A stretch of 64,000 bases of DNA, from the IMG/VR virus record IMGVR_UViG_3300044694_000082, positions 40,345 through 104,344 of that record, one strand, 5' to 3'. Within the stretch, counting starts at the first letter, position 1. The number at the start of each line of letters is the position of its first letter. Source of the DNA: a virus. Lineage: Duplodnaviria > Caudoviricetes. The notes beneath the pieces are model-generated. The model ran no database searches, was not told the origin of the DNA, and saw nothing but the letters and a program-made list of their open reading frames with translations. Made by a program: the position numbers and the translations under genes. Positions 655-38,169 of this stretch are shown piece by piece.

Positions 655-1718
655 CGCATGCTCTCCTCGATCGCTTCGGCTTCGGCGTCCTCGGCGGCGA
701 GGCACCGCTCGCACTGGTTCTCGCCCTCGTCGCAGTTCTCCTGGTCGGCGCCGTTGACACAGCGTTCAACCTGGCTCTCGGGGATGAACTTGGCGTCGTC
801 CATGGAGTACCAGGTCTCGGGACCGCCGGGCCGGAGCCAGTGGACCCGCAGCCGTGTACGCCCGTTCTTCTCCTCGACGGCGATGACGTAGCCCTGCTGG
901 CCGCCCTTGCCCTGGATGTAGACGCGCGGCGCCGTCGGCCGTTCGTAGCGCTCGAACCAATCGGCGAACTTGGCCGCAGGCCAGGTCTCGTAACGATAGT
1001 CCTTCGGCATGTCCTCACCACGGTCGAACTCAATCAGCAGCTCATCCTTGTTGCCGCGCGTGCGTCGCAGGACCGTGACGAACTCACCCGCACCGCCCGT
1101 GTTCGGCTTGCGCATGCGCCAGGTCGATCCGACGGCGAACTGACCGGCGGGGATGGGCTTGGGCGGGCACTCGGGGCCGTCGGGGTGGACCTCGACGCGG
1201 TTGTCAGCGAAGGCGTACGAGTCGTAGTCGGCGTAGCTCCCGTGCGGGTACTCGCGCCGCCACATGTACTTCGAACGACCAGCGGTGTACCCGCTGATCA
1301 TGCCAGGCTCAGGGTTTCGGTAGACCATCTTGCGACGGTCGTCGTCCCATTCGACATCGGAGACCAGCACCCGCGTACCCACGGGCAGCAGCTTGTGCTT
1401 CGGCTCCGGGGGCGGGTCGGCGTAGTCGCAGTCCTCGGTGTGGCGCTCCTTGCACTGGGGGCGACGGTTCTCCTTGGACCTGCACTCCTTGAGGGGCGGC
1501 AACGGGATGACCTCACGCCACGCCTCGACCTCGTAGGGTGGGTAGTCGCTGTGGTTCTCTGCCAGCATCACGAGGGCTGCGATGTGGGCCCGCTGTGCCT
1601 CGACCTGCGCGGAGAGGAGGGCAGCGATCCGCTCCAGCATGTCGTCAATCGCGAACGCGTCGTTGATCTCTGCGTTGATCGCCTTGAAGTACTCGGGGCC
1701 GGTCTTGTTGTCGGTCAT
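651..1718 (-). CDS. Hypothetical protein with tandem SH3/Tudor-like beta-barrel segments
   Basis: ATG after GAAGGA; segments LPVGTRVLV, FAVGSTWRM, GYVIAVEEK; terminal Cys clusters. Confidence 0.65.
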   Translation of the reverse strand: MTDNKTGPEYFKAINAEINDAFAIDDMLERIAALLSAQVEAQRAHIAALVMLAENHSDYPPYEVEAWREVIPLPPLKECRSKENRRPQCKERHTEDCDYADPPPEPKHKLLPVGTRVLVSDVEWDDDRRKMVYRNPEPGMISGYTAGRSKYMWRREYPHGSYADYDSYAFADNRVEVHPDGPECPPKPIPAGQFAVGSTWRMRKPNTGGAGEFVTVLRRTRGNKDELLIEFDRGEDMPKDYRYETWPAAKFADWFERYERPTAPRVYIQGKGGQQGYVIAVEEKNGRTRLRVHWLRPGGPETWYSMDDAKFIPESQVERCVNGADQENCDEGENQCERCLAAEDAEAEAIEESMR

Positions 1719-1720
1719 GA

Positions 1721-2020
1721 TCAGTCCTTCCGTCCGTCGAGGAGCTTGCCGAACATCTTGGAGGCGGCGGTCAGGTCGGGCTGAGGCTCGGCCTTGACGA
1801 TGGCGACGACGGCGGCGCCGTTGTCCCGCTGCTGGCGGGTGAGGCAGGCCTCGGCGCCTTTGTAGGTACCGGACCACTTCACACCGACGGCGATCCGGCC
1901 GTCCGACCAGCGCACGACGGCGGCGTAGTTGTAGGTGTTGGCGGAGGTGCGTTCGGCGTGGTGGAGCTGGCCGTCCTCGTCGCGGTAGACGGCCACGTAC
2001 TTGGTCTTCTTGGTGGGCAT
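1721..2020 (-). CDS. Hypothetical protein
   Basis: GAGGAG RBS, MPTKKTKY start, operon packing. Confidence 0.65.
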   Translation of the reverse strand: MPTKKTKYVAVYRDEDGQLHHAERTSANTYNYAAVVRWSDGRIAVGVKWSGTYKGAEACLTRQQRDNGAAVVAIVKAEPQPDLTAASKMFGKLLDGRKD

Positions 2021-2021
2021 G

Positions 2022-2426
2022 TCAGGGCTCCTCGGTGTGGGCGGTGTTGGCGGGGAGGCACTGCGGGGTGGTGCGGTGCCAGGTGTAGCAGCCGTCGCAC
2101 AGGCAGTCGTCCTCACCGGCGAACATGGCGTCTTCCGGCGTGACCAGACGGCCACAGCACGGGCACGAGTTCGGCGGGGTGTCGGCGGGGTCGATGCGGA
2201 AAGACCAGCCGGACGGCTCATGCAGCTTCGCAACGGCGGTCCCCAGTTGTGCGAGGTCATTACCGAACCGGCGGGCGGCCATGACCGGGACGTCCATGCG
2301 GATCAGGATGTCTCCGGCTGCGTCGCCCGCGTGCTGGATCTCGGTGACCTCTTCGCGCAGGACCACGGCCTTGCCGTAGGCGGCCGGGGCGATGGGCGGG
2401 TGGATGACGGACAGGACGTAGCTCAT
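2022..2426 (-). CDS. Hypothetical protein, paralog family C (H-x-x-SG-x-x-FRI) with C-terminal Zn finger
   Basis: Motif shared with 5133-5585 and 12020-12478. Confidence 0.65.
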   Translation of the reverse strand: MSYVLSVIHPPIAPAAYGKAVVLREEVTEIQHAGDAAGDILIRMDVPVMAARRFGNDLAQLGTAVAKLHEPSGWSFRIDPADTPPNSCPCCGRLVTPEDAMFAGEDDCLCDGCYTWHRTTPQCLPANTAHTEEP

Positions 2427-2575
2427 CGCAGCTCCTCGATGTCGTCGGGGTGTTGGTACTGCTGGATCTCCATGGCCTTCCTGTAGTTGCGAGCCGCGGC
2501 CAGCGAGAAGCCAGCCGACGCGATGGACATGACCAGGGACAGGAGAGAGATGATCAGGGCGACGGTGTCGTTCAT
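2423..2575 (-). CDS. Small membrane protein (50 aa)
   Basis: MNDTVALIISLLSLVMSIASAGFSLAA; ATGA overlaps at both ends; below ORF-track cutoff. Confidence 0.6.
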   Translation of the reverse strand: MNDTVALIISLLSLVMSIASAGFSLAAARNYRKAMEIQQYQHPDDIEELR

Positions 2576-2943
2576 CGGGTGGCCTCCAGCTCGGCGAGGC
2601 GGGCGGTGATGAGCCGCTTCCAGGCGTCGGTGAGGGGGGCGAATACCTCCGTACGCTCGGCGTCGTTCAGTCGGTGCGCGAAGACGCCGATCTCCTTGGT
2701 TCCGAGGGTGAATCCGTGGGCCATCCTGTCGTCGTCCACGTCCAGGCCGAGTTGGTCCATGGCGCCCATGTAGGCGCCGTCACCGTCCGAGTGGCAGACG
2801 ATCTGAGCGGCGACGCAGAACTGGGTGTCGGAAACGTCGAGGGCGCGGAGGTCGACGTCCAGCTCCCAGCCGGGGTAGCGGGCGTCGAGGATGCGGGCGC
2901 CCTTCAGGACGCGGGCGTCGAGTTCGGTGTCGGTGGGGAACAT
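2572..2943 (-). CDS. Hypothetical protein, paralog family A
   Basis: SAS-type RBS; aligns with 3875-4219. Confidence 0.75.
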   Translation of the reverse strand: MFPTDTELDARVLKGARILDARYPGWELDVDLRALDVSDTQFCVAAQIVCHSDGDGAYMGAMDQLGLDVDDDRMAHGFTLGTKEIGVFAHRLNDAERTEVFAPLTDAWKRLITARLAELEATR

Positions 2944-3020
2944 GGTGTCTTCCTTGTCGTAGTTGGTCCCGTAAGCCGAAGGGGCCGGACACAGTGTGCC
3001 CAGCCTGTTCGGTCGGCGGG

Positions 3021-3197
3021 TCAGTCTTTGGTGGGCCAGAGGCAGGCCACGATCACCACGATGGCGGTGATCACGGCGATGGCTGCGACGCCCAGGAGTA
3101 CGGCACCGATCCCGAGACCGATGCCGCATCCTTCTGGGTCGTACTTCCGCATGTCCGAGGGGCACCAGAAGTTCCAGTACCAGTCGGGGATGCTCAC
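3021..3197 (-). CDS. Small membrane protein (58 aa)
   Basis: GTG coupled to upstream stop; hydrophobic GIGAVLLGVAAIAVITAIVVIVACLW. Confidence 0.6.
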   Translation of the reverse strand: MSIPDWYWNFWCPSDMRKYDPEGCGIGLGIGAVLLGVAAIAVITAIVVIVACLWPTKD

Positions 3198-3397
3198 GTG
3201 ATCTCCGCGATCGTGACCCGATAGCGGCGGGTGTCGTTGCTGCCGTACGGGTCAGCCGTGACCACATCGATGGCCAGCGGCTCACCCGGGACCGGCGGGA
3301 CCAGGTCGAAGTGCTTGACCAGCCGGGTCTCCAGGTCACCGTTGAGCAGACCGGTCATGGCCGTGTAGATCGCGTAGCGCAGCTCGGCGTCGTTCAT
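3194..3397 (-). CDS. Hypothetical protein
   Basis: ATGA overlap, MNDAELRY start. Confidence 0.6.
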   Translation of the reverse strand: MNDAELRYAIYTAMTGLLNGDLETRLVKHFDLVPPVPGEPLAIDVVTADPYGSNDTRRYRVTIAEIT

Positions 3398-3624
3398 CCG
3401 GGGTACTCCCCGAGCCTCGTGTCCCAGGCGTCGCCGGGCAGACGGGCCAGCCACTTGGCGATGACCATCTGGGCGAACTCGTGCGGGATGCCTTCGGCAT
3501 CGGTGCCCTCGGTCTTCTCCGTCCAGAACTCCAGCAGGGTTCCGGCCTCTTGAAGGAGGCGTTCGGCGACCTGTCGGCGCATCTGGGCGGCACTGACGCG
3601 TGCCGAGGGGGTGGGCGTGTCCAT
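3394..3624 (-). CDS. Hypothetical protein
   Basis: GAAAGGACACC RBS. Confidence 0.7.
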   Translation of the reverse strand: MDTPTPSARVSAAQMRRQVAERLLQEAGTLLEFWTEKTEGTDAEGIPHEFAQMVIAKWLARLPGDAWDTRLGEYPG

Positions 3625-5587: not shown

Positions 5588-5863
5588 TCACGCCTCCTCG
5601 GTGCGGACGGGGACGAACCAGGCCGGGGAGGGCTGCCCGGCGTTCGGGAACCCCGGGTCGTAGACGGCGGCGTCCTCGACGCGGATCACGCCGTTGGATT
5701 CCAGCGCGACGACGGAACCGCGAGCTACGGCCTTCTCGATTTCGTAGGCGACCCCGGCGGCGTTGTCTTGGCAGATGCGCCGGGACCAGCCGAGGCCGTA
5801 GCCGCCCGCCCACTTGGTGTACCAGACGCCGGGGACGGGGGTGGGGATGGATGCGGTGGTCAT
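5588..5863 (-). CDS. Hypothetical protein
   Basis: SAS RBS. Confidence 0.7.
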   Translation of the reverse strand: MTTASIPTPVPGVWYTKWAGGYGLGWSRRICQDNAAGVAYEIEKAVARGSVVALESNGVIRVEDAAVYDPGFPNAGQPSPAWFVPVRTEEA

Positions 5864-5909: not shown

Positions 5910-5942
5910 AAAGCCCGGCACGGCGGCAACCGTGCCGGGTTT
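5910..5942. terminator. Intrinsic terminator-like hairpin
   Basis: CCCGGCACGG-6nt-CCGTGCCGGG with short A/T runs on both sides. Confidence 0.55.
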
Positions 5943-5944
5943 CG

Positions 5945-5960
5945 TGTTTCACGTGGAACA
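5945..5960. promoter_or_regulatory. parS: parS site 1 (chromosomal ParB-binding consensus)
   Basis: TGTTTCACGTGGAACA; reverse complement TGTTCCACGTGAAACA fits TGTTNCACGTGAAACA; intergenic. Confidence 0.85.
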
Positions 5961-5966
5961 TCGGGC

Positions 5967-6215
5967 CTACTCGGGGGCCGACTCCCGCTGCTGCTCCAGC
6001 TGGTAGGCAGCCTCGCGCTCGATGGCCTCGCGGTCCGGCTCCGGCTCGCTGCGGCAGTCGTGCTCGTTCATGAGCGTGATCAGCGTGCCGATGTTGTCGT
6101 CGGGCTCGATGCGGGTGATGACCGTGCCGCAGTGCTCGTGTACCAGGTCGTGATCGGTCTGCATGTCGTCGTCGCTACGGCGGACGACGAAGCCGTACGG
6201 GTCGTTGATCTCCAT
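5967..6215 (-). CDS. Hypothetical protein (HxxC...HxC)
   Basis: Coupled ORF, GAGGAG RBS. Confidence 0.65.
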   Translation of the reverse strand: MEINDPYGFVVRRSDDDMQTDHDLVHEHCGTVITRIEPDDNIGTLITLMNEHDCRSEPEPDREAIEREAAYQLEQQRESAPE

Positions 6216-6466
6216 CAGCTCTCCTCCCTGGTGCCAGTCAGGAAGACGACGCCCGGATGGTGTGGCTGGCCGTCCTCGACGGTGTACGAGTAGCCGTCGG
6301 CGGCCGGGTCCTGGTAGGTGATGTCAGACATCACGTCGACACGTACGCGTGGGGCTCCGTCCTCGCGACGGGATTCGGTGTCGATCTCCACGACGCCGAT
6401 GCCGTCGGGGAGGATGACGCGGAGGCTGCCGCGTCTCATGCGGTACTGGCGATAGTCGTTGGTCAT
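6215..6466 (-). CDS. Hypothetical protein, paralog family B
   Basis: TGATG coupling; aligns with 4251-4616. Confidence 0.7.
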   Translation of the reverse strand: MTNDYRQYRMRRGSLRVILPDGIGVVEIDTESRREDGAPRVRVDVMSDITYQDPAADGYSYTVEDGQPHHPGVVFLTGTREES

Positions 6467-6927
6467 CAGGCGACCTCGGCCTTGGCGTACTCGTCGTACG
6501 CGTCCATGAGCAGGTGGCGGAGCTGGGCGTGCGCGTCGCGGGCGGCGTTGTAGGCGGCCTCGGTCTCGTCGTAGTCCAGCTTGCCGCTGACCTCGAACCT
6601 TTCGGTGATCCACTCCCGCAGGGTGGGCATCTCCTCATACCGGGCGGCGTTCATGAGGAGTTCGCCGAGGACGCCGGACAACTCAGGGTTCACGTGACGG
6701 CCCCCGTTGCTCCGGCGGGACTCGGCCACGGCTCCACCGATGCCCCGGAAGTAGGCGGTGCGGCGGGTGCTGCCGTCCGTCACCCACTTCTGCGGCTCCT
6801 CGGTGGAGCGGATCAAGACCAGGTCCCACACCTCGTACTCGCTGTACGGGCCGGTCGAGACTTCGTGCGTCCAGAACCAGCGGGCGCGGATGCCGTCGCG
6901 GTTGATCAGGTCGGTAAGGGTGGTCAT
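6466..6927 (-). CDS. Hypothetical protein
   Basis: GAAAGGACACC RBS, MTTLTDL start. Confidence 0.7.
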   Translation of the reverse strand: MTTLTDLINRDGIRARWFWTHEVSTGPYSEYEVWDLVLIRSTEEPQKWVTDGSTRRTAYFRGIGGAVAESRRSNGGRHVNPELSGVLGELLMNAARYEEMPTLREWITERFEVSGKLDYDETEAAYNAARDAHAQLRHLLMDAYDEYAKAEVA

Positions 6928-6958
6928 GGTGGTGTCCTTTCGGTGTCGGGCGGCGGAG

Positions 6959-7171
6959 TCAGCGGTCCAGCTTCTTGGAGCGCACGCGGTGCCGTGCATC
7001 CGGGGATGCGATGGTGTACTCCCTGCACAACCAGTACGCGTAGTCGCGGCCGGTCAGGGAGTCGTCCGGGCCACCCGTGTCGGTGGGTTCGACCTCGTCC
7101 AGCTCCTCCCACTCCGAGCCGGGGCCGGTGGTGTACTTGCCTTCGATGACCCAACCGTTGACGGTGCTCAT
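6959..7171 (-). CDS. Small acidic hypothetical protein
   Basis: GAGAGGACACC RBS, MSTVNGW start. Confidence 0.65.
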   Translation of the reverse strand: MSTVNGWVIEGKYTTGPGSEWEELDEVEPTDTGGPDDSLTGRDYAYWLCREYTIASPDARHRVRSKKLDR

Positions 7172-7187
7172 GATGGTGTCCTCTCGA

Positions 7188-7203
7188 TGTTTCACGTGGA
7201 ACA
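7188..7203. promoter_or_regulatory. parS: parS site 2
   Basis: TGTTTCACGTGGAACA, identical to site 1, intergenic. Confidence 0.85.
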
Positions 7204-7204
7204 T

Positions 7205-7552
7205 TCAGCGGGCGGGCGGTGTGTAATCGGGGTCGCGGCGGATCTTGTTGTTGACGATCCGGGAGACCGTCCCCTTGTCCAGTCCGAACTCCTCCGCGAT
7301 GGCGGCCAGCGAGACACGGCCGGTCGCGTACTGCGCGCGGATGACCCGGGCCTCCTTCAGCAGTTGAGCACGCGTGGGTGCGGGCGGGAGATAGTCCGGG
7401 TCCGGCCAGGTCTGGCCACGGATGATCGCCGAGATGGTGGCGTGGTGGACGCCGTACGTCTCGGCGAGCTGCGGCATGGTCGTGCGGCCTGCCGCGTACA
7501 GGGCGCGGATGGTGCGCACCTGCACCCAGGTCAGTACAGGGGCGCCGGGCAT
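7205..7552 (-). CDS. Tandem helix-turn-helix DNA-binding protein
   Basis: Two repeats: IRALY...LAETYGVHHATISAII and IRAQY...IAEEFGLDKGTVSRIV. Confidence 0.8.
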   Translation of the reverse strand: MPGAPVLTWVQVRTIRALYAAGRTTMPQLAETYGVHHATISAIIRGQTWPDPDYLPPAPTRAQLLKEARVIRAQYATGRVSLAAIAEEFGLDKGTVSRIVNNKIRRDPDYTPPAR

Positions 7553-7569
7553 GGGGTCTCCTTGTCGGA

Positions 7570-7585
7570 TGTTTCACGTGGAACG
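7570..7585. promoter_or_regulatory. parS: parS site 3
   Basis: TGTTTCACGTGGAACG (15/16 identical to site 1), intergenic. Confidence 0.8.
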
Positions 7586-7586: not shown

Positions 7587-7841
7587 TCAGGGGCGGTTGA
7601 GGCCGCGCGTGTCCTCGAAGATGTCGGTCACGGCGCCGGTCTGGTGGTGGGTCGTCCACCACACCTCCAGCCACCGGTTGGACGGGGTGCCGTCCGCTGC
7701 CTGGGCGTAGAAGCCACGGTGGTGGAGCGCCGATCGCCTGCCGAGGCAGCTGTAGGCGCTCATGTGCTGCTCGTCCACCTCGAAGGCGTGGGCGAACCCG
7801 TCCTCAGAGGAACGCTGGGTGATGCCGGTGTGCTTGGCCAT
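7587..7841 (-). CDS. Hypothetical protein
   Basis: ACAAGGAG RBS, MAKHTGI start. Confidence 0.65.
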   Translation of the reverse strand: MAKHTGITQRSSEDGFAHAFEVDEQHMSAYSCLGRRSALHHRGFYAQAADGTPSNRWLEVWWTTHHQTGAVTDIFEDTRGLNRP

Positions 7842-9182: not shown

Positions 9183-9401
9183 TCACGGGGTGTCTCCCGG
9201 CATCCAGCTTTCAAGCGCGTGCACTTCGGTGATCGAGTCCAGGAAATGGTGCTGCATGACCACCGTCAAGGTGGCGTACAGGCAGACCAGGTCTCCGATC
9301 TTCTGACTCACCACCCAGCGCTCACGCTTGTCCTCCACCCAGCGAAGCCGGTGCCAGCCGCGCGGGAGCGGCCCGGTGGGTCCGGGCACGGGGTTGGTCA
9401 T
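9183..9401 (-). CDS. Hypothetical protein
   Basis: ATGA coupling, GGAGG RBS. Confidence 0.55.
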   Translation of the reverse strand: MTNPVPGPTGPLPRGWHRLRWVEDKRERWVVSQKIGDLVCLYATLTVVMQHHFLDSITEVHALESWMPGDTP

Positions 9402-9973
9402 GACTGTTTGTCCTCCAGGAAGGCGGCGAACTGCTCACGGGCTTCGGTCTCGGCGTAGTCGTAGCCGATCAGCCCCCAGCACGAGCCGTCGTTAACCTCG
9501 ACCCAACTGGTGTGCTCGTCGGGAAGGGTGACGTCGTCGCCGGGGTCGACGGGCTGCCAGGTCACGGCTTTTTCGATCACGTAGCCGTAGACCTCACCCC
9601 GTGCCCAGGCCATGTACTCGTCGATCTCGCCCCGGATGGCGGCCACGGGGTCGGGGACCTGTGCGATGCCGTCGGGCATCAGGTACCAGAGGGCTTCGGC
9701 GCCGTCGTGCGGGGCGTGGTATTCGACCACGGCACCGTGGAAGATGCGCGCCCAGCGGGTGAAGATCTCGACGGCGTCCGGGTGCCCCATGATCCGCTCC
9801 CAGCCGTCCTCCAGCGGGCCGCCATCCCGGTCCACGTCGATGTACTGGTGAGTGGGCAGCGTGATCACGTGGGTCAGTTGATCGAACTCCGTGCGCGGGT
9901 TGGACGGTTCCGGGTCCGGCATGAGGCGGACGCGGTAACGCCCGTCGTCGCTGGTCTCGATGGTGTCGGTCAT
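9398..9973 (-). CDS. Acidic phage/mobile-element hypothetical protein
   Basis: WARGEVYGY...SCWG motif; GGGAG RBS. Confidence 0.75.
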   Translation of the reverse strand: MTDTIETSDDGRYRVRLMPDPEPSNPRTEFDQLTHVITLPTHQYIDVDRDGGPLEDGWERIMGHPDAVEIFTRWARIFHGAVVEYHAPHDGAEALWYLMPDGIAQVPDPVAAIRGEIDEYMAWARGEVYGYVIEKAVTWQPVDPGDDVTLPDEHTSWVEVNDGSCWGLIGYDYAETEAREQFAAFLEDKQS

Positions 9974-10000
9974 GGCGATGTCTCCCGTGTCAGTCGGTGA

Positions 10001-10225
10001 TCAGGTGTAGGTTCCGATGATCTGGAACCGGCCGCCCGCTTGTGTCACTTCGGTGCGGCGCGCTTCAACGCACGCCGCACACAGGGGTTTGATCACCCCT
10101 TGGTGTGCTCGACGGGGACCTTGCCGCCACCCCATCTGTACGCGGGCCACTGCGGGCGGCGGGTCGCTGTAGTGCGCAGAGTCGGCCAGCCAGCCGCACG
10201 GCGGGGGGTTCTCGGAAGGGGGCAT
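10001..10225 (-). CDS. Hypothetical protein
   Basis: GAAAGGA RBS. Confidence 0.6.
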   Translation of the reverse strand: MPPSENPPPCGWLADSAHYSDPPPAVARVQMGWRQGPRRAHQGVIKPLCAACVEARRTEVTQAGGRFQIIGTYT

Positions 10226-10298
10226 GGTGATGTCCTTTCACGATGCGGGGCACGGACGGCCACCGGGATGAGCGGTGGGCGCCCGTGACGGCACCGGG

Positions 10299-10844
10299 TC
10301 AGTGGCCGCGAGGCGGGTGGAAGCGATAGGTCTTGGACAGGCGCGGGATGCCCGGGGTGCTGCGGCTGGTGATGGCCGTGCCGACGCGGTACAGGTGCAC
10401 GGTGTCACCCTCGGTCACCATCTCGTCGGACCAGGTCAGCCGGACGGTGGGGAAGCGGCGCCCCTGTGAGGCCAGCGGCTGGAGAGGCTTGATCACGATG
10501 CCGGTGTCCGTGACCTCGGTGACGCGGGAGCCGTCGCGGCTGTCGCTGATGTAGTCGTGATCGGTGATGTCGACCGTCCAGCCCACGGCCACGCGGGCAC
10601 GCAGTTCGGCCAGGTCGGCGATGCGTTCTTCCCGGGTGATGATCCACCGGTACGCCTTGTCCGCCTCGGACTCGTGCGGGTACTTCCACAGCTCGGTGTC
10701 CGTCTTAGTGTCGTAGTCGTGCTGGGCCACCCGCCACCAGGTGTTGGGGCCGATGTCGGCGTACTGGAGTTGGGCGCCGGTCCATGGGTGGCTGACGTAG
10801 GTGGACCACTCGACGGTGGACCAGTCGAAGGGGGTGGTGGTCAT
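10299..10844 (-). CDS. Hypothetical protein
   Basis: GGAGG RBS, high GC3. Confidence 0.7.
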   Translation of the reverse strand: MTTTPFDWSTVEWSTYVSHPWTGAQLQYADIGPNTWWRVAQHDYDTKTDTELWKYPHESEADKAYRWIITREERIADLAELRARVAVGWTVDITDHDYISDSRDGSRVTEVTDTGIVIKPLQPLASQGRRFPTVRLTWSDEMVTEGDTVHLYRVGTAITSRSTPGIPRLSKTYRFHPPRGH

Positions 10845-10846
10845 GA

Positions 10847-10999
10847 TCAGTCCTCCGTGTGGGGCTCGTCGGGGTGGTGGAAGTCGGCGCAGCCGGTGCA
10901 GAACGGAATTCCCTCAATCTCACAGGCTGTGACGATCTCCCGTACGTGCGCGGGGTCGTAGTGGGGACGGGCGTCCAGGAACGCGGCGACAGGATCCAC
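10847..10999 (-). CDS. Small hypothetical protein (CxxC-x-HH)
   Basis: Fills the gap between neighbours; GGGAGAG RBS. Confidence 0.5.
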   Translation of the reverse strand: MDPVAAFLDARPHYDPAHVREIVTACEIEGIPFCTGCADFHHPDEPHTED

Positions 11000-11001
11000 G
11001 A

Positions 11002-11280
11002 TCAGCTCTCCCTGGCGGCGTCGAGGCGGGCAATCTCGGCGCGGATGGGGTCGGTACCGGTATCGGCCTGCTCGGCGGTGATCACATACCAGCGGTCGCG
11101 GTGGGGGCCGCTGCCGTAGCGGAACACCAGCGAACCGATGCGTACGTCTTCGTTGTGGGGCACCGGAATCTGAGTGGGACCGAACCAGTGCTCGTTACTG
11201 TCGAGGGCTTCGATGATCCTGCTGGCCATGGCGCTCCGGACCTGACAGGCGCCGCAGTCAATGTGATCTTCGGTGTGCAT
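11002..11280 (-). CDS. Hypothetical protein
   Basis: GAGGA RBS, MHTEDH start. Confidence 0.6.
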   Translation of the reverse strand: MHTEDHIDCGACQVRSAMASRIIEALDSNEHWFGPTQIPVPHNEDVRIGSLVFRYGSGPHRDRWYVITAEQADTGTDPIRAEIARLDAARES

Positions 11281-11281
11281 G

Positions 11282-11722
11282 TCAGTTGTCCTCGGTGATC
11301 TCGCGGTGCGCGACGATCCAACCGGCGCTCTCCGACTCGCCGTTGCCGTCGTCGTACTCGGGGTCGTCTTCCTTCGGGTGGATCTCGACGGAGAGTGCCA
11401 CCCAGTACCCGGGGGTCTCGCGGATGTGATCGGCCAGGGCGCCGCCGATGTACTCCGAGGGGTGCATGATCGGGCCGCTGTACCTGTCCTGGCCGGACCA
11501 GCCATCGGCGACGTGCCAACCCTGATCGGCCAGGTACTTGACCATGTCCCGGTCGTGTTCCTTGGTGATGGATGCCTCGGCGAACGGGCCGTCGTAGTCG
11601 CAGTACACCTCCGGGGCGTAGACGCCCAGCGGCTTGCCGTCGGGGGTCTTGTCGGTGACGGTGCCGTCCGGGAGTACCCGCACGACGTGGTCGATGCTCA
11701 TCAGGTTGTCGAGATCCATCAC
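11282..11722 (-). CDS. Acidic hypothetical protein
   Basis: AAAGGACACC RBS; D/E-rich. Confidence 0.7.
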   Translation of the reverse strand: MMDLDNLMSIDHVVRVLPDGTVTDKTPDGKPLGVYAPEVYCDYDGPFAEASITKEHDRDMVKYLADQGWHVADGWSGQDRYSGPIMHPSEYIGGALADHIRETPGYWVALSVEIHPKEDDPEYDDGNGESESAGWIVAHREITEDN

Positions 11723-11729
11723 GGTGTCC

Positions 11730-11777
11730 TTTGCCGTCTCGTTATTTTGCCGTTCCGTGACTTTGCCATCCCGTTAC
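11730..11777. repeat. Three tandem 16-bp direct repeats (putative operator)
   Basis: TTTGCCGTCTCGTTAT / TTTGCCGTTCCGTGAC / TTTGCCATCCCGTTAC. Confidence 0.8.
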
Positions 11778-11841
11778 ATCCGGGGAGGCGCGGAGCGGAA
11801 GGTCAAATCCGGGTAAAGTTGCTGGTCAGCGTGTCAGGGTT

Positions 11842-11912
11842 AGTCCCGGGACTGGCGTTGGGCAGTCCCGGGACTGAGCCGCAGTCTCTCAAGAGGCCAG
11901 GTAGTCCCGGAC
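11842..11912. repeat. Repeated palindrome AGTCCCGGGACT
   Basis: Perfect copies at 11842-11853 and 11864-11875 (22 bp apart); partial copy at 11903-11912. Confidence 0.75.
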
Positions 11913-12019
11913 GGATCGCCGGAAACTCTGACGGTCGGCGCGCTTGAGCTGACGTCGGCGCACGGTGAGGTCACGTCGGCGCAGGGATATGCGGTCGCGG
12001 CGGGTGGCTCGGCGGGTCA

Positions 12020-12478
12020 TCAGTCCTCCGTGGTCTCGTACAGGGCAACGGTCTGCCCCAGGTCGGTCATGATGCGGGTCAGGGTGACGCGCTCACCCGC
12101 GAGGTTCGTGTCGTCCCAGCGCCAGACCATCCAGCCCCGGGCCAGGGCCCATGCGGTCCCCGCGTTGATGTGCTCGGTGCTGCGGTAGGTGGTGCTGCGC
12201 CAGCGCTGAGCCGGAACCGAGCCCAGCAGGCGAAGGCCAGCGGTGTCGGCGAGTTCCACGCGGAAGCGCAGGCCGGTGGCCACGTGGTGGTAGGTGATCC
12301 CCTTTGTGGCGCGAGCCACGGCCATGCCCACCTTCACGGCCTCCCGTTCCGTGGTGCCCGGGACTGTCTCCTTCACTGCGGAGGCCACGGCCACGACGAC
12401 CTGAGGGCCGTACAGCAGTTCCGGGGTGGTGGTGCGCGTGCCGTCGGGGCGGGTGATGTGCAGAACGAAAGCGAACAT
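12020..12478 (-). CDS. Hypothetical protein, paralog family C
   Basis: SAS RBS; HVATGLRFRV motif. Confidence 0.7.
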   Translation of the reverse strand: MFAFVLHITRPDGTRTTTPELLYGPQVVVAVASAVKETVPGTTEREAVKVGMAVARATKGITYHHVATGLRFRVELADTAGLRLLGSVPAQRWRSTTYRSTEHINAGTAWALARGWMVWRWDDTNLAGERVTLTRIMTDLGQTVALYETTED

Positions 12479-14201: not shown

Positions 14202-14277
14202 GTCCTCTCGCTGAGTCCTGTGCAGACAACAGGGCGCACGTTCCCGTCAGGGATCATGCGCCCGATGCGTGCACGGC

Positions 14278-14556
14278 TCAGACGTTCTTACGCGCGGCCT
14301 CCTGTGCGGCCAGCTCATCCGGGGTGATCACCCGGACGCTCGGCCACGCGTTGATCGTCGGCGACGTGGACGTGTCCATGTGCCAGTCCATGAACGTGAC
14401 CTTGCTGCCCTTGGGCACCTCCGCCTCGACGGCGCGGATAACGGCCCGCCTCACTGCGGCCCGATCGTCGCTGTTGACGTTCCACCAGGCGCGTGCCTTG
14501 TGAATCCAGCCCGGTCCCGCAGAACGGTCGGCCGGTCCGGCGTACTCAACGATCAT
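14278..14556 (-). CDS. Hypothetical protein
   Basis: GAGGAG RBS, ATGA coupling. Confidence 0.6.
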   Translation of the reverse strand: MIVEYAGPADRSAGPGWIHKARAWWNVNSDDRAAVRRAVIRAVEAEVPKGSKVTFMDWHMDTSTSPTINAWPSVRVITPDELAAQEAARKNV

Positions 14557-14759
14557 GACTGCGTCTCCTCACTGCCCGCGCACCCTGCGCGCTGGCATGT
14601 CACCGTGATCTTGCGCCCCGACTGGTAGTGCTCGATCGAGAACGGGCCCTTGATCCCGCACCCGGTCCGCGCGTTGCTGATATTCGAGTAGGCCCAGCCG
14701 TCACGGATCTTGTGCGTGGCGCCCTTGCCGGTCACCCGGGCAACGTACTGCGCTTCCAT
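14553..14759 (-). CDS. Small Zn-binding hypothetical protein
   Basis: GGAGAGGGA RBS; H...C...CxxxxC. Confidence 0.6.
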   Translation of the reverse strand: MEAQYVARVTGKGATHKIRDGWAYSNISNARTGCGIKGPFSIEHYQSGRKITVTCQRAGCAGSEETQS

Positions 14760-22492: not shown

Positions 22493-22728
22493 GCGGCGTC
22501 CCTCATCTCCGGCACGCTGATCTCGTGGATGCCGATGTCCCCGATGGCGATGGCGATGGAGGCGGCATGGGTGATGTTTTCGGCGCCGTACTGGCGGATG
22601 ATGATGGCGATCATCGATTCGGCCGTGTTCTTGGTGATGCCCATCTTCTGGGCGGCCTGGGCGTTGGTGTAGCCGTTGGCCTTGAGGACCATCAGCTCTC
22701 GCCGACGCGCAGAGAGTTCCTCGATCAC
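22489..22728 (-). CDS. LuxR/GerE-type HTH regulator
   Basis: LSARRRELMVLKANGYTNAQAAQKMGITKNTAE. Confidence 0.8.
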   Translation of the reverse strand: MIEELSARRRELMVLKANGYTNAQAAQKMGITKNTAESMIAIIIRQYGAENITHAASIAIAIGDIGIHEISVPEMRDAA

Positions 22729-23453
22729 GGCGCCACCCGCCCGTTCTTGTTGAAGGCCTCGTACGTCAGCGGCATGAGCTTCGCCCACTGGGCCTCCATC
22801 TTCTCGCCCACCATCTCGATCTCCCGCTGCGGGAAGGACGGCACCTTCGCGTCTGGGTGTGTCGTGCGCAGGCCCAGGAAGTGCATCAGCGAACGGGCGT
22901 TGCAGGTGGCGTACATGGAGGAGTAGATGTTCACCGGCAGGCACATGCGGGCGACCTCACGCGCCACACCGATGTCGAGGAGGCCGCGGTAGCTGTCGTA
23001 GGCGGCTGTGGAGAGCACCTTGAGGTTCATGTCGACGGCCACGGTCTGGGAGACGTTGCCGTCCTCGAACCGGTAGGAGCCCGGTTTGCCGACCTGGACG
23101 AGCTTGCGGCCGGGGCCCGGTATATAGAACACCGGTTCCATCTCCTTGTAGCGGCCGGACTCCTCGTTGTAGCTGAATCCGACCCGGTGGCGGTGGAACT
23201 CGCGGAAGACGAAGATCGGCGCCTGCACGAAGAAGGTCATCGAGTTGTGCTCGAAGGGCGAGCCGTGCCGGTCCCGCATCAGGTAGTTGATCAGGCCCTT
23301 GGCGCGGTCGCCGCCAGGATCGCCGTGCAGATCGTCGAGAGAGCCGCCGCCGAGCGTGGAGACCCGGGCGGCGGCGGTGACGTCGAGATCGGACGCGGTG
23401 TGCTTGACCAGTTCGACAGTGACGTCCGATCGAAAGGTCACGTGATGGCTCAT
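22725..23453 (-). CDS. thyX: FAD-dependent thymidylate synthase
   Basis: RHGSPFEH and RHRVGFSYNEESGRY ThyX motif. Confidence 0.97.
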   Translation of the reverse strand: MSHHVTFRSDVTVELVKHTASDLDVTAAARVSTLGGGSLDDLHGDPGGDRAKGLINYLMRDRHGSPFEHNSMTFFVQAPIFVFREFHRHRVGFSYNEESGRYKEMEPVFYIPGPGRKLVQVGKPGSYRFEDGNVSQTVAVDMNLKVLSTAAYDSYRGLLDIGVAREVARMCLPVNIYSSMYATCNARSLMHFLGLRTTHPDAKVPSFPQREIEMVGEKMEAQWAKLMPLTYEAFNKNGRVAP

Positions 23454-23965
23454 GCTGCACGCTCCAGCTCTGCCAGGTTGATAACGCCCTTGGGCCAGCG
23501 CATCGTGATGACCCTGGTGGTGTTGTAGTAGATCTTCCGGCAGCCGTCGCACGGTTCCTCGGTGACGAACAGCCGGGCGCCGGGCAGACGACGGCGGTCA
23601 TCGACGTCCAGAAGCGCGTTCAGTTCGGCGTGGGTACTGATGCATGCCCCGGGCCCCGTGTCGTAGGAGGAGCCCGGCTCGACCGCCTCCGAGCACGGCC
23701 AGCGTCTGCCGCAAGCGCAGACGTACCGGCCGAGGGCGTCCGCTGATACCGACGCCCCGGACACCGGCAGGTAGTGCCGTCCGCGGGGGCAGTCCCCGGC
23801 CAGGCAGCTCTTGCCGCCTGGCCGTGCCCCGTTGTATCCGGCGCCGATGATGCGGTTGTCGACGTCGAGGAGGACCGCGCCGACCTGGCGGCGGGTGCAG
23901 TCGCCGCGTACCTTGACTGCCTCGGCGACGCCCAGGCCGTACTCGTCCCAGGAGGGGCGCGTCAC
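23450..23965 (-). CDS. dCMP deaminase
   Basis: RPSWDEY, CTRRQVGA, GYNG, HAE and PCxxC. Confidence 0.93.
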   Translation of the reverse strand: MTRPSWDEYGLGVAEAVKVRGDCTRRQVGAVLLDVDNRIIGAGYNGARPGGKSCLAGDCPRGRHYLPVSGASVSADALGRYVCACGRRWPCSEAVEPGSSYDTGPGACISTHAELNALLDVDDRRRLPGARLFVTEEPCDGCRKIYYNTTRVITMRWPKGVINLAELERAA

Positions 23966-23973: not shown

Positions 23974-25107
23974 TCACTTCGTCAGGACCATCACCGAGGA
24001 GTGCAGGTACAGGTGCCGGTTGAGGGACGTCGATTGAACGTAGATCGTGTAGTCCTTGTTGAAGTCCGGCTTGACGGTGCGGTCTTCTTCGGGCAGGCCG
24101 AGCATCTGGCGCACGCCGTCGCCGAGGTAGACCTTGCTGGTCTTCTTGTCGAGGATGGCGAGTTCCTTGTTGCCGCGGATCCGTTCGGTCTTGACCAGCT
24201 CGTAGTAGGCCTTGCCGACGTGGAACGGTGGGTGGACGCGCTGGATGAACGGCTCGATCTCCATGTAGGCGACCATGGGCCGGTTGTCGGGCCTGCCCGC
24301 GGCGGGCTTCTTGCCTTCCGGCTTCTCCTGGACGAGGCCCTGGATGGGGGTGACGGGGACGATGGCGTACGCGTCCTTCGCCAGAGGCGTCAGCCGGGCC
24401 TGCTTGATCGTCGCGGCGCTGACCTGGCCGCCGACGGCGAATGCGCTGCGGGTGCCGCGGACGCCGGTGGCCGCGCGGGTGGCGACGTAGGAGGTGTACG
24501 AGGTCTTGATCTTCTCGACGGCCTGCTCCAGACCGGCTTCCGTGGAAGCGTCCCACAGGGCGACGTTGTCCCTGGCGAAGCCGAAGCCGTACAGCTCCTT
24601 GGCCGACCGGGAATCCGGCGCCAGCCCCAGCATGGTGCGATTGTCGGGCAGCTGCGCGAACCGCTTCTGCATCTCCTCCTGCAGCACCTCGACAGGGATG
24701 CTGCCGAAACCCGGGTGCCGTCCGCCCCGCAGGCGGCTCGCGTTCTCGAAGCCGTCGGTGAGCAGGTAGTACGTCCAGTCGTGGGTGCCGTACTTCTCTG
24801 GCACCATCTCGGTGTCGTCGAGGGAGGTGTGGACGGCGTCCGCCATGGCCGTCATGCCCTTGATCTTGTACAGGCCCTTGACGCTGGGGAGCCGGAAGAC
24901 GTCCATGTCCCAGACGTGGCATTCGACGTCGTCGGAGAAGGAGTAGACCGAGATCCGGGTCTCCTCGTTGTCCTCTCGGGACTTCTTCGCCAGGAACGCC
25001 ACCAGATCATCGGTGACCTTCACGACCTTCTGCTGCAGGTGGCCCATCGAGCCGGAGGCATCCAGCAGGAGAACGACATGGTTGATGTAGTTCTGTTTCG
25101 TCGACAC
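23974..25107 (-). CDS. von Willebrand factor A domain protein
   Basis: MIDAS DASGS, T (GMTAM) and LTDGFENAS; SAS before GTG. Confidence 0.9.
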   Translation of the reverse strand: MSTKQNYINHVVLLLDASGSMGHLQQKVVKVTDDLVAFLAKKSREDNEETRISVYSFSDDVECHVWDMDVFRLPSVKGLYKIKGMTAMADAVHTSLDDTEMVPEKYGTHDWTYYLLTDGFENASRLRGGRHPGFGSIPVEVLQEEMQKRFAQLPDNRTMLGLAPDSRSAKELYGFGFARDNVALWDASTEAGLEQAVEKIKTSYTSYVATRAATGVRGTRSAFAVGGQVSAATIKQARLTPLAKDAYAIVPVTPIQGLVQEKPEGKKPAAGRPDNRPMVAYMEIEPFIQRVHPPFHVGKAYYELVKTERIRGNKELAILDKKTSKVYLGDGVRQMLGLPEEDRTVKPDFNKDYTIYVQSTSLNRHLYLHSSVMVLTK

Positions 25108-26121: not shown

Positions 26122-26291
26122 TAGGAGAACTCCACTCCGCTGTGGGGTGTCTGCTTCAGGTCGCGGATCATCTTGACCAGGTCATCCACGTCGGACATGA
26201 CGCGGCGTGCGTCGCTGGCCGGAATGAACTCCTCGACGATCTCAGCGATGGAGTTGCGCAGCTGCTGTACACGATCCTGCTTTGCCGTCAC
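26121..26291 (-). CDS. Small helical hypothetical protein
   Basis: GTGA coupling. Confidence 0.55.
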   Translation of the reverse strand: MTAKQDRVQQLRNSIAEIVEEFIPASDARRVMSDVDDLVKMIRDLKQTPHSGVEFS

Positions 26292-26524
26292 GCCAGCTCC
26301 CAGTCGTCGGCGAGGAGGTAAGGATCGAGCATGACGAACGGGCTGATCTTGCCGTCGCTGCGCATGGCCATGATGGACGGCATCCACCCGTCGCGGTCCT
26401 CGTAGTAGAGGTAGATCCAGGTGGCGAGGTCGATCTCCTCGCAGAAGTCGGTCAGCTGCGGCCAGCCCGCCCGCCGCACCCTCTCACCGTTCTTCATCGC
26501 CTTGATGGCCCAGCCGATGTCCAC
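26288..26524 (-). CDS. DUF2829 / Tad2-like protein (candidate immune-signal sponge)
   Basis: IGWAIKAMKNGERVRRAGW...LLADDW signature. Confidence 0.8.
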   Translation of the reverse strand: MDIGWAIKAMKNGERVRRAGWPQLTDFCEEIDLATWIYLYYEDRDGWMPSIMAMRSDGKISPFVMLDPYLLADDWELA

Positions 26525-26525
26525 G

Positions 26526-26795
26526 TCAGTGCTCCGGGATGATGACGTCGGAGTCGTCGAAGATCCGCACGACCAGGACGACGAGCTGTCCGGCGTGGAC
26601 GCTGTACTCGATCAGGATGCGGGAGGTCAGCCGGACCTCCCGCCAGTCGCCGCCGAGCGGGTGGGAGACCTCGGTGAAGGGGTCCTCACACAGGGCCTGG
26701 ATCCCCTTCTCGAAGATCTGACGGCGCTCCGGGGGCAGAGCGTCCCGCTTGGCCGCGGCCTGCTCGGTGTACATGACGGTGTAGGTGGTGTTCAC
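26526..26795 (-). CDS. RelE/ParE-superfamily protein
   Basis: YTVMYTEQA...L...R...I..L..DP...REVRL...IEY...VLVVRI pattern. Confidence 0.7.
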   Translation of the reverse strand: MNTTYTVMYTEQAAAKRDALPPERRQIFEKGIQALCEDPFTEVSHPLGGDWREVRLTSRILIEYSVHAGQLVVLVVRIFDDSDVIIPEH

Positions 26796-27007
26796 GCTGG
26801 CCCTTCCTCGGGTGCCACTTCCATGGACAGAATGCTATTGACCGACAGCAGGGCACCCTGGTCGTCCGTCTTGAACAGGGTGACCTTCATCGTGCGCCAC
26901 TCCGGGTCGTCGATCTCGAAGTGCTCGGTGACGTCGGCGCCGTCAGGGAATCCCATGATGAAGTCGTAGAACTCCTGCGGCACGAGCCACGGTTTCTGCT
27001 CGCTCAA
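26792..27007 (-). CDS. Acidic hypothetical protein
   Basis: TTG coupled to upstream stop. Confidence 0.55.
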   Translation of the reverse strand: MSEQKPWLVPQEFYDFIMGFPDGADVTEHFEIDDPEWRTMKVTLFKTDDQGALLSVNSILSMEVAPEEGPA

Positions 27008-29068: not shown

Positions 29069-29374
29069 TCAGCTGTCGTAGGTGAGCAGGTCGCCGGGCT
29101 GGCACTGCAGCTCCCGGCAGATCGCCGCCAGCGTCGTCAGCCGGATGAAGGTGACGTCGCTGTTCTTCAGGCGGGAGAGATCCTTCGCCCGGATGCCGAT
29201 GGCGTCCGCGAGGGCCACGTTGGTGACGTTGTGCCGGGCCATCAGTTCCGCGAGGTGGATACGGATGGGCGGCGCTGTCGTGCCTGGCTCCCCCTCGTCG
29301 AACGCCTTCTTGATCTTTTCGGGGGCTTCGTCCTCTTCGTAGAAGTCCCGGGCTCGCTGCCGGTCCATCGTCAT
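29069..29374 (-). CDS. XRE/HTH_26 (YozG-like) regulator
   Basis: LADAIGI...LSRLKN...IRLTTLAAICRELQCQPGDLL. Confidence 0.9.
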   Translation of the reverse strand: MTMDRQRARDFYEEDEAPEKIKKAFDEGEPGTTAPPIRIHLAELMARHNVTNVALADAIGIRAKDLSRLKNSDVTFIRLTTLAAICRELQCQPGDLLTYDS

Positions 29375-31549: not shown

Positions 31550-31870
31550 TCACCGCTTCCGGCGGTAGCAGGGGAGCGTCCACACGATCGAGCGGCGCGT
31601 CTTGTCCTTCTGCCGCCAACCCGCGTACATGCTGTCCCGCATCCTCTCCACCGTCGAGGAAGCGCCGGTCGGCAGGAGCGCGTAGTGCCGGTCCGGTGTC
31701 CACCCCATCCTGATGAGGCAGTCCCCGATCTCCGCCCCGGGGAACGGCTCCAGGTCAGGGTCACGGTCCCGGTACAACAGCTCGCAGATGTCGGTGCCCT
31801 TCACCCGCAGGATCCAGTCGTAGTTGTTGTTCACGCGGACGTAGGCGGTCCGCCACTCCAGCTCGCTCAC
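31550..31870 (-). CDS. Hypothetical protein coupled to the recombinase
   Basis: GTGA overlap, GGAGG RBS. Confidence 0.55.
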   Translation of the reverse strand: MSELEWRTAYVRVNNNYDWILRVKGTDICELLYRDRDPDLEPFPGAEIGDCLIRMGWTPDRHYALLPTGASSTVERMRDSMYAGWRQKDKTRRSIVWTLPCYRRKR

Positions 31871-37998: not shown

Positions 37999-38169
37999 GG
38001 CGCCGCCTGGGGTGAGCGTGATGGTCAACGTCGTGCTCCTCTTCCTGGTGATCGCTTCCATTATGCGTCACCGATTGCTGCCCGCCCTCCCCCCGGGATC
38101 GGCGGGTTTTTCCTTTGAATTGAAGACGCCCGTCGGGGCGGCTCTTACGAATTGAAGACGGAGGGTCCT

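Follow-up and report, generated by a model that had tools for sequence, protein, structure and literature searches.

Several partition systems described in phages and bacteria resemble the locus reported here. Bacillus phage phi29 carries five parS sites and is entrapped in spores in a Spo0J-dependent manner (PMC2731898). Unrelated phages have also been reported to contain a single orphan parS. The RedRock-type actinobacteriophages of cluster A keep an extrachromosomal prophage by ParA-based partition, and their compact cassette includes a ParB of their own and private parS loci (two loci of eight 8-bp repeats) (PMC7157519). The linear plasmid-prophage N15 encodes SopA and SopB, and its Sop system has four private IR centromere sites at which the partition complex can silence nearby promoters (PMC7205306). 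On the bacterial side, 21 parS sites are listed for the chromosome of Streptomyces coelicolor, and the same review tabulates TGTTNCACGTGAAACA as the parS consensus of both B. subtilis and C. glutamicum (PMC7022226).

We analysed a stretch of 64,000 nucleotides (the window), which begins at base 40,345 of a 104,344-bp virus record (G000), probably from a soil or rhizosphere metagenome. The initial annotation had pointed to three exact, intergenic plus-strand copies of TGTTTCACGTGGAAC(A/G), and all three were recovered at the positions given in Table 1. It had seen no further copy in the window, and none was found even when three mismatches to the palindromic consensus were allowed. Dinucleotide shuffles predict 0.00 exact matches to TGTTTCACGTGGAAC(A/G) and 0.08 matches to the consensus with three or fewer mismatches. 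The genes around all three sites are encoded on the minus strand, with the sites in the short gaps between them, and on the transcribed strand the motif reads TGTTCCACGTGAAACA. The hairpin next to copy 30 looks like a terminator that divides the gene at 5967-6215 from the gene at 5588-5863. The 70-amino acid gene downstream of copy 31 has an orthologue in a relative (G002), where it is likewise preceded by a site.

Table 1. Features of the window and of the surrounding virus record. Positions refer to the window unless stated otherwise.
Feature	Position	Strand	Length	Remarks
GC-rich hairpin and short T run	5913-5941	−		just downstream of parS copy 30 in the minus-strand sense
parS copy 30 of 32	5945-5960	−		TGTTCCACGTGAAACA; 6 nt past the stop codon of gene 5967-6215
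Gene downstream of copy 31	6959-7171	−	70 aa	directly downstream of copy 31
parS copy 31 of 32	7188-7203	−		1 nt past the stop codon of gene 7205-7552; 16 nt, with GAGG within, ahead of the ATG of gene 6959-7171
Tandem double-HTH protein	7205-7552	−	115 aa	bracketed by copies 31 and 32
parS copy 32 of 32	7570-7585	−		CGTTCCACGTGAAACA on the minus strand, outer base variant; 1 nt past the stop codon of gene 7587-7841; 17 nt, with AAGGAG within, ahead of the ATG of gene 7205-7552
Tyrosine recombinase	31867-32580	−	237 aa	catalytic domain only
XRE/CI-type HTH protein	37561-38061	−	166 aa	opposite strand, between terminase and portal
parA	22,849-23,646 of the record, outside the window			inside the array; AAA_31, E = 1.3e-60, full length

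The three clustered sites of the initial annotation are real but show no more than the end of a far larger array. The record contains 32 parS copies between 22,194 and 47,929 (approximately 26 kb) and none elsewhere; 29 of them lie upstream of the window, and those in the window are the last three. All 32 copies have the same orientation and an invariant 14-mer core, and conservation of their flanks ends about 3 nt out. Site density reaches 22 sites in 7.3 kb, and in the dense part of the array a site follows every 0.1-0.8 kb. A lytic-style replication module encoding PolA, a D5 primase-helicase and an SF1 helicase is located directly downstream of the array.

The 16-mer TGTTCCACGTGAAACA is identical to a parS that occurs naturally within the parB gene of B. 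subtilis and has been used in ParB binding studies (PMC4333373). All three window sites match the consensus TGTTNCACGTGAAACA exactly, and its 15 specified positions are all matched by 27 of the 32 copies in the record; chance agreement with these 15 positions has a probability of about 1e-9. The same variant is also used on candidate host chromosomes, for which loci were obtained by exact-protein look-ups. The parAB/oriC locus of Peterkaempfera (Streptomycetaceae) has five perfect and four T>C-variant parS sites. Across 80 parA loci we counted 58 perfect 14-mers and 29 copies of the variant used by the phage, with the other one-mismatch variants amounting to 10 in total, which makes the phage-type variant the commonest one-mismatch form of parS in actinobacterial oriC regions. 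The perfect palindrome is the preferred form on host chromosomes, and the asymmetric variant is near-exclusive in most of the phages with arrays. Judged by its sequence, the phage motif is a genuine chromosomal-type parS, as the initial annotation had recognized from the consensus, and a predicted nucleation site for ParB.

The initial annotation had named conservation in relatives as a check on its reading, and the sites are indeed kept: 154 of them are present in seven related uncultured genomes or contigs, at 15-32 copies each and with an invariant core. These genomes are only approximately 70-80% identical in nucleotide sequence, over 18-46% of their length. Orthologues of the G000 genes that are preceded by a site have an upstream site themselves in 22 of 35 cases, whereas among the remaining genes this holds for 5 of 164 (Fisher p = 8e-16). 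The small genes spanned by the array form a hypervariable block: for most of those between sites the relatives lack an orthologue, and some array orthologues differ in order from one relative to another. In one relative (G018) the asymmetric variant is replaced by the perfect palindrome; the variation therefore sits at the N position of the consensus. DNA searches of cultured phages in near and distant modes returned no matches. No parS was detected in Streptomyces phage Dagobah, the nearest cultured relative by capsid protein, or in remoter capsid relatives of 38-71 kb, which include two proviruses.

Six of the seven array genomes encode an intact, short ParA of the chromosomal type, inside the array and bracketed by sites; the exception is G002, which has the array and no ParA. 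The phage protein retains the KGGVAKT and DLDPQGN motifs and the Walker B region, and its nearest solved structures are ParA/Soj. By sequence, it is a Walker-type ATPase with a deviant Walker A motif, as in Type I ParABS systems. It is 64-67% identical to the oriC-linked ParA of Streptomycetaceae, without the N- and C-terminal extensions found in the host protein, and the array phages are 67-73% identical to one another in ParA. In a phylogenetic tree the phage proteins fall beside those of Streptomycetaceae, not within them. A protein search of cultured phages with ParA returned distant ParAs alone, and no parS was seen in those examined among 80 unrelated viral-contig ParA loci that were listed by a pattern-based search.

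A centromere-binding protein of the kind that is encoded with parA in Type I systems, whether of the ParB fold or a small RHH protein, was not found. The array phages gave zero ParB_N or HTH_ParB matches and zero tblastn matches to host ParB. No small partner gene beside parA is conserved, and an RHH-type partner adjoining parA was ruled out by neighbouring ORFs that are not homologous between genomes. The initial annotation's statement that the window lacks parAB agrees with these results, as the only ParA match in G000 lies outside the window. Its proposal that the phage hijacks the host ParABS system stands with respect to the missing phage ParB and fails with respect to the motor: the phage encodes its own ParA, and this is therefore not a simple borrowing of the host system. 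Given a ParA of its own and no ParB of its own, the protein loaded onto the phage DNA is most likely the ParB of the host.

Compared to the described systems, the locus resembles phi29 in having host-type ParB/Spo0J sites on a phage without ParB, here conserved in relatives, and perhaps in a host that is a sporulating Gram-positive. In contrast to that Bacillus phage, with its five sites and no ParA, the array phages are approximately 100 kb in size, have an actinobacterial setting and combine 15-32 perfect, co-oriented gene-boundary sites with a phage ParA of the chromosomal type, all of this known from sequence. They share with RedRock the possession of ParA by an actinophage, but they lack ParB and have the universal chromosomal parS dispersed over 26 kb. 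With N15 they have in common several separate palindromic centromere sites on a phage genome rather than one block, but the sites are many more and their putative binder is a host protein. The site family, the ParA family and the abundance of sites are those of the ParABS systems of Streptomyces and other actinobacterial chromosomes, from which the viral array differs in having no parB and far denser sites.

Other phage proteins were considered as binders or regulators. The tandem-HTH protein was rejected as the common binder of the motif since it is not conserved in the other array phages. The XRE/CI-type HTH protein, which all four complete genomes have conserved, is left as the candidate for a binder or repressor encoded by the phage; the motif copy nearest to its gene is more than 30 kb away. 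Neither protein shows the stoperator-type arrangement of a conserved phage repressor with sites near its own gene. A promoter read by a phage RNA polymerase or sigma factor was also rejected. No Sigma70_r2 match was obtained, no RNA polymerase was present among the large proteins scanned, the three window sites lack a sigma-70-like promoter, and no conserved element, including a −10, was seen downstream of the motif. Several conserved phage proteins have no annotation; one of them, a conserved protein of 134 amino acids (window 2022-2426), gave no family and no useful look-alike.

We favour, with moderate confidence, a hybrid partition or positioning system in which parS and ParA come from the phage and ParB comes from the host. 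Its direct basis is the identity, copy number, placement and conservation of the sites, the absence of ParB, and the presence and ancestry of ParA. Nearly every site lies 1-2 nt after a stop codon and 12-34 nt before a start codon, and each copy is placed behind the stop codon and ahead of the ribosome-binding site that follows. Co-orientation with transcription was observed for 145 of the 151 asymmetric sites across the array phages, and the sites of G018 lie about 40 nt upstream of start codons in longer intergenic elements. ParB is a symmetric dimer and hence leaves the co-orientation of asymmetric sites unexplained; ParB binding alone is not sufficient to account for this orientation and for the placement between stop codon and ribosome-binding site. 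As RNA, the motif forms a weak hairpin with an orientation-dependent stability (−5.8 kcal/mol for the sense and −9.8 for the antisense direction; the perfect palindrome reaches −10.3). From these fold energies one could speculate that the asymmetric base and the co-orientation serve to weaken an mRNA hairpin near the ribosome-binding site, an idea that is less likely because palindromic copies adjoin ribosome-binding sites in G002.

Stoperators of cluster A mycobacteriophages are asymmetric 13-bp sites that are bound by the phage's own repressor and differ between immunity groups; they are present in dozens of copies in short intergenic gaps, co-oriented with transcription. The parS array has the same architecture of many co-oriented copies of a short motif in short gaps, but here the near-palindromic motif has the sequence of host parS and stays the same in diverged phages, and a conserved binder encoded by the phages was not found. 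This architecture, the tight and co-oriented placement, and the location of the G018 sites upstream of start codons in longer intergenic elements would suit a role of ParB in gene control, as a stoperator-like roadblock, silencer or insulator at gene boundaries. Expression of the accessory block would then follow the host ParB level or the developmental stage, and such control could operate alone or atop partition. We regard this explanation as unlikely. Spreading of chromosomal ParB usually has little effect on transcription, the phage ParA would be superfluous, and the placement may be passive because a fixed 16-mer in a compact genome fits short gaps alone. Silencing at centromere arrays by SopB of N15, a ParB homologue, does provide a precedent (PMC7205306). 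A variant that is possible, if rather unlikely, would unite both functions in one element, with host ParB acting as gene-boundary regulator and as centromere complex, in effect a host-protein-dependent stoperator. CTP clamps would tie expression of the 26-kb block to the ParB level of the host in hyphal growth versus sporulation, and phage ParA would drive the same ParB complex, and the genome with it, into tips and spores.

The remaining alternatives give the sites other roles. Each copy of the phage genome has 32 sites, and during replication this DNA might act as a sponge that titrates ParB off the chromosome and, with phage ParA, disturbs host segregation, SMC loading or division, such that inheritance is not the selected function. 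The number of sites per phage genome, which exceeds the 21 listed for S. coelicolor (PMC7022226), the lytic-style replication module next to the array and the retention of the array in G002 without ParA are consistent with such a takeover. We nevertheless consider it improbable, as it has no need for a conserved, intact ParA that is bracketed by sites in six of seven genomes and leaves the gene-boundary placement unexplained; its benefit is also doubtful given that ParB is listed as non-essential in actinobacteria and Firmicutes (PMC7022226). It is quite improbable that a phage-encoded protein other than ParB binds the motif, which would then be an operator, a promoter element or a signal in the RNA by which each cassette is translated or processed, with the likeness to parS being incidental or secondary. 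Such a protein could account for the fixed, co-oriented position relative to the ribosome-binding site and for the weak RNA hairpin with its orientation-dependent stability, and could be the conserved XRE/CI-like protein or one of unknown fold among the conserved proteins without annotation. However, a 15-position match to parS would hardly arise by chance, parA lies inside the array, and the motif is static across phages that have diverged in ParA, the variation in G018 being another natural form of parS. The candidates also fit poorly, the tandem-HTH gene through its lack of conservation and the XRE gene through its distance from any motif, and the searches for sigma region 2, RNA polymerase and promoter elements described above speak against a promoter. 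Finally, the repeats might mainly be recombination boundaries where co-infecting relatives shuffle their gene cassettes, as T4-type phages do with promoter-stem-loop cassettes, with protein binding being secondary. The hypervariable small genes covered by the array, with few orthologues and some reordering, fit this view, but an identity of 16-22 bp is short for homologous recombination, and the identity to parS, the ParA and the switch to a palindrome in G018 would have no explanation; we consider this very unlikely.

In the favoured hybrid system, host ParB dimers would nucleate at each parS, close as CTP clamps and slide, and with the dense spacing of the sites approximately 26 kb of phage DNA would be coated by a large complex of ParB. 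Phage ParA bound to the nucleoid would be stimulated through the LGRGL motif at the N terminus of host ParB; in the relative without parA, host ParA would take the role of the motor. We infer the binding of ParB in vivo and its interaction with phage ParA from the combination of genes and sites. The biological outcome may include partition, spore entrapment, SMC loading, titration or silencing. Under partition, the phage genome, as an extrachromosomal prophage or a carrier-state genome, would be placed actively and passed on in multigenomic hyphae, and perhaps also in spores, of a Streptomyces-like host. Such a host, which the initial annotation had also assumed, is plausible because ParA is nearest to that of Streptomycetaceae and the major capsid protein is nearest to that of Dagobah (51% identity). 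The short tyrosine recombinase, a possible integrase or multimer resolvase that is present in G001 and G003 and absent from G002, gives lysogeny thin support together with the CI-like HTH protein.

Experimental proof that phages use host segregation machinery is limited to phi29-like phages with few sites. The genomes described here suggest a clade of large soil actinophages that carry more parS sites than a Streptomyces chromosome, have kept ParA and have dispensed with ParB. If the hybrid system operates as proposed, it would represent a naturally split par system in which the parasite contributes the motor and the centromere and the host contributes the adaptor. The dense parS array would then be useful for studying ParB-CTP loading, collisions between clamps and transcription, and SMC recruitment. 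The combination of ParA and a parS array without ParB suggests a simple marker for finding such elements in metagenomes, and the system would offer a handle on the persistence and movement of phages in multigenomic hyphae and spores.

Exactly three copies of the motif TGTTTCACGTGGAACR are present in the window, all on the plus strand, whereas dinucleotide shuffles are expected to yield 0.00 matches. A search of the window for the palindromic parS consensus with up to three mismatches returned no additional copy (0.08 expected from shuffles). On the minus strand, where the genes neighboring these sites are encoded, the motif reads TGTTCCACGTGAAACA. The three exact, co-oriented sites described in the initial annotation were therefore recovered, but what had been taken for a cluster of three is the end of a much larger array. 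Of the 104,344-bp virus record (G000), rated complete by CheckV, the window covers bases 40,345–104,344; the whole record contains 32 copies in a single orientation, 22 of which are packed into 7.3 kb. All 32 share the 14-mer core GTTCCACGTGAAAC (as read on the minus strand) without change, and copies with two or three mismatches were found nowhere in the record. Alignment of all copies showed that only (G)A-TGTTCCACGTGAAACA-TCG is conserved; the outer flanks differ, which argues that the copies are not recent segmental duplications. In this genome and its relatives the sites follow a common arrangement: a stop codon, 1–2 nt or an overlap, the motif, 12–34 nt containing a Shine-Dalgarno sequence, and a start codon.

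The motif fits the consensus TGTTNCACGTGAAACA listed for B. subtilis and C. glutamicum (PMC7022226). The phage 16-mer is identical to a natural site within the B. subtilis parB gene that has been used for ParB binding studies (PMC4333373), and in several biochemical studies of ParB from B. subtilis and H. pylori the 14-mer was the parS substrate. For comparison with hosts, we inspected the oriC regions that encode the named proteins most closely related to the phage ParA described below. That of Streptomyces fradiae carries four perfect palindromic 14-mers, and that of Peterkaempfera bronchialis five, together with four copies of the phage T>C variant. At 80 further parA loci, 58 perfect 14-mers and 29 of the phage type were counted, against 10 for all other one-mismatch variants combined, so that among natural variants of chromosomal parS the phage motif is the commonest. 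Given the consensus match, the B. subtilis identity, the use of the 14-mer as ParB substrate and the actinobacterial chromosomal occurrences, we regard the motif as a true parS, as initially proposed.

Relatives were found by scanning viral contigs for the extended motif, which returned other multi-copy records of 100–117 kb. The full sequences of three were analysed: G001 (116.7 kb, 24 sites), G002 (102.4 kb, 15 sites: 10 forward, 3 reverse and 2 perfect palindromes) and G003 (111.6 kb, 20 sites). Their nucleotide identity to G000 is only about 70–80% over 18–46% of the query, with nearly none in the array. Three additional contigs, reached through the closest short ParA homologues, hold 23, 19–20 and 20 sites in 16–19 kb. 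The seven genomes or contigs together contain 154 sites, of which 145 are co-oriented with local transcription, 6 are opposed and 3 are perfect palindromes. Among orthologues of site-preceded G000 genes (protein identities 28–72%), 22 of 35 also have an upstream site, compared with 5 of 164 orthologues of genes lacking one (Fisher p = 8e-16). Where array sites vary, the change is a swap between two natural parS forms at the N position of the consensus. The conservation in related phages, at orthologous positions, shows the array to be under purifying selection. No parS sites were present in more distant capsid relatives (38–71 kb, including two proviruses) or in Streptomyces phage Dagobah, so the array is characteristic of this clade of roughly 100-kb phages. 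In a fragment from another relative (G018), whose capsid protein is 82% identical, all five sites are perfect palindromes (CGTTTCACGTGAAACG), within longer intergenic elements of ~100 nt that have GC-rich, symmetric flanks. Start codons follow these sites after about 40 nt, a context unlike that in the query genome.

Positions of parS sites and of other features in the window, in the complete record (G000) and in relatives
Feature	Sequence	Position	Strand	Details
parS site 1	window	5945	+	stop of gene 5967-6215 6 nt before; followed by terminator-like hairpin 5913-5941
parS site 2	window	7188	+	1 nt past stop of gene 7205-7552; ATG of gene 6959-7171 16 nt on
parS site 3	window	7570	+	1 nt past stop of gene 7587-7841; ATG of gene 7205-7552 17 nt on
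Tandem HTH protein	window	7205-7552	-	115 aa; two HTH units (MarR_2/HTH_3; PHROG 'HTH DNA binding protein'); between two parS copies
ThyX thymidylate synthase	window	22725-23552	-	
Weak VWA-domain match	window	23974-25107	-	377 aa; kept in 4/4 complete genomes
Tyrosine recombinase	window	31867-32580	-	237 aa; catalytic domain only (PF00589, E = 5e-8); head of leftward arm
XRE/CI-like HTH protein	window	37561-38061	-	166 aa; opposite strand between terminase and portal; in 4/4 complete genomes
Protease fusion	window	39581-41359	+	592 aa
parS array	G000	22,194-47,929		32 copies
ParA/Soj ATPase	G000	22,849-23,646	-	265 aa; AAA_31, E = 1.3e-60
Array genes outside window	G000	26176-26904, 31625-32392, 34265-34714 (L124:6176-6904, 11625-12392, 14265-14714)	-	
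HU-like protein	G000	29127-29456 (L124:9127-9456)	-	Bac_DNA_binding, E = 3e-17; within array
Glycosyltransferase region	G000	9190-12035 (L123:9190-12035)	-	amid replication genes
AcrVA2-like family (PF26125)	relatives	L224:11314-12450; L225:11069-12265		second gene downstream of parA; precomputed matches
Palindromic parS elements	G018 (L366)	1153-3441		

The absence of parAB noted initially holds for the window, but the genome as a whole encodes a ParA, whose gene lies within the array with one motif copy on either side. The ParB_N and HTH_ParB Pfam models had no match in G000, while control genomes responded as expected; tblastn with Streptomyces ParB gave no match in G000 either, and ParB_N is missing from all seven genomes or contigs. 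In G001, G003 and the three contigs, too, parA invariably lies within the array with sites on both sides; G002 lacks it. The phage ParAs share 66–73% identity among themselves and 64–67%, over 98% of their length, with ParA of Streptomyces, Streptacidiphilus and Peterkaempfera; both host loci fetched (S. fradiae and P. bronchialis) are oriC-linked. Unlike the host proteins, the phage ParAs have no N- and C-terminal extensions, but the deviant Walker A, A' and B regions are retained. A maximum-likelihood tree placed 17 of the 19 short metagenomic ParAs in one group with moderate support, adjoining a clade of chromosomal ParAs from Streptomycetaceae, Propionibacterium and Micrococcales and far from Acidimicrobiia and Bacillota. 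From this position, the gene is a chromosomal parA captured long ago from the class Actinomycetes; by itself, the tree does not name the host.

Other binders of the motif and a promoter function were also considered. The tandem HTH protein encoded between two sites has no orthologue in five of six relatives. The ORFs adjoining parA are unrelated between genomes, leaving no conserved small RHH-type partner. The conserved XRE/CI-like protein, which may be an immunity repressor, has no motif copy within 30 kb of its gene. A phage-specific promoter was rejected, since no sigma region 2 was found, no RNA polymerase was detected among the large proteins scanned, and the sites show neither a sigma-70-like promoter nor a conserved element 3' of the motif that could be a −10. 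For a conserved 134-aa protein (window 2022-2426), neither a family nor an informative look-alike was found.

ParB binding does not explain why the sites are co-oriented with transcription or placed just before ribosome-binding sites, and because ParB is a symmetric dimer the near-constant orientation is left unaccounted for. The placement may be partly passive, as a compact genome has room for a fixed 16-mer in short intergenic gaps only; alternatively, ParB clamps could be used for regulation at gene boundaries. The calculated RNA hairpin energy is −5.8 kcal/mol for the sense motif, whose lone asymmetric pair is a C·A mismatch, −9.8 for the antisense and −10.3 for the perfect palindrome. Speculatively, selection might have favored the orientation and the variant that leave the ribosome-binding site accessible, an idea left unproven by the palindromic copies near start codons in G002.

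The long leftward arm of G000 extends from about 72 kb to 1 kb and comprises, in that direction, small genes, the array and a replication module (D5-type primase-helicase, SF1 helicase and family A DNA polymerase); the rightward arm encodes terminase, portal, a protease fused to further sequence, major capsid protein and tail genes. The protease matches capsid maturation proteases of Mycobacterium and Gordonia phages in its first ~290 residues only, and its C-terminal half may be a fused scaffold. Among the array genes outside the window, those for an RlaP-type nucleotidyltransferase, a Thg1-like tRNA-His guanylyltransferase and a NUDIX hydrolase form a set for RNA repair or modification that is found again in the relatives' sequences L224 and L225; the HU-like protein has homologues in both and in G001. 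The glycosyltransferase region encodes a chitin/hyaluronan-synthase-like family 2 enzyme and a UDP-glucose/GDP-mannose dehydrogenase. Among cultured phages, the capsid protein finds its best match in Dagobah (51% identity across 94% of its length). The host is probably, with moderate confidence, a member of Streptomycetaceae or a near relative. The short tyrosine recombinase, present in G001 and G003 and missing from G002, may serve as integrase or multimer resolvase; together with the CI-like protein it hints at a temperate or plasmid-like state.

Phage phi29 has five host-type parS sites, Spo0J-dependent spore entrapment and no ParA (PMC2731898), compared with 15–32 sites and, except in G002, a ParA here. 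RedRock and other cluster A actinophages carry complete private parABS cassettes (PMC7157519), and N15 its own SopAB with four separate centromere sites (PMC7205306), whereas in the present clade many sites of the universal host parS type go with a ParA, except in G002, and ParB is lacking. None of the three joins such an array to an orphan chromosomal-type ParA and the absence of ParB, and a full-text literature search of incomplete coverage on motif, phage, parS and ParA found no description of such phages. The suggested hijacking of host ParABS is partly supported, by true, conserved parS sites and the lack of ParB, and needs amending for 32 sites and a ParA of the phage's own. We lean towards the sites being bound by ParB and working with the phage ParA. 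Host ParB would nucleate at the phage sites, load as CTP clamps and spread across the array, and its N-terminal motif (RRGLGRGLGAL in S. fradiae) would then activate the nucleoid-located phage ParA. This would position the phage genome within hyphae, and perhaps spores, and secure its inheritance there.
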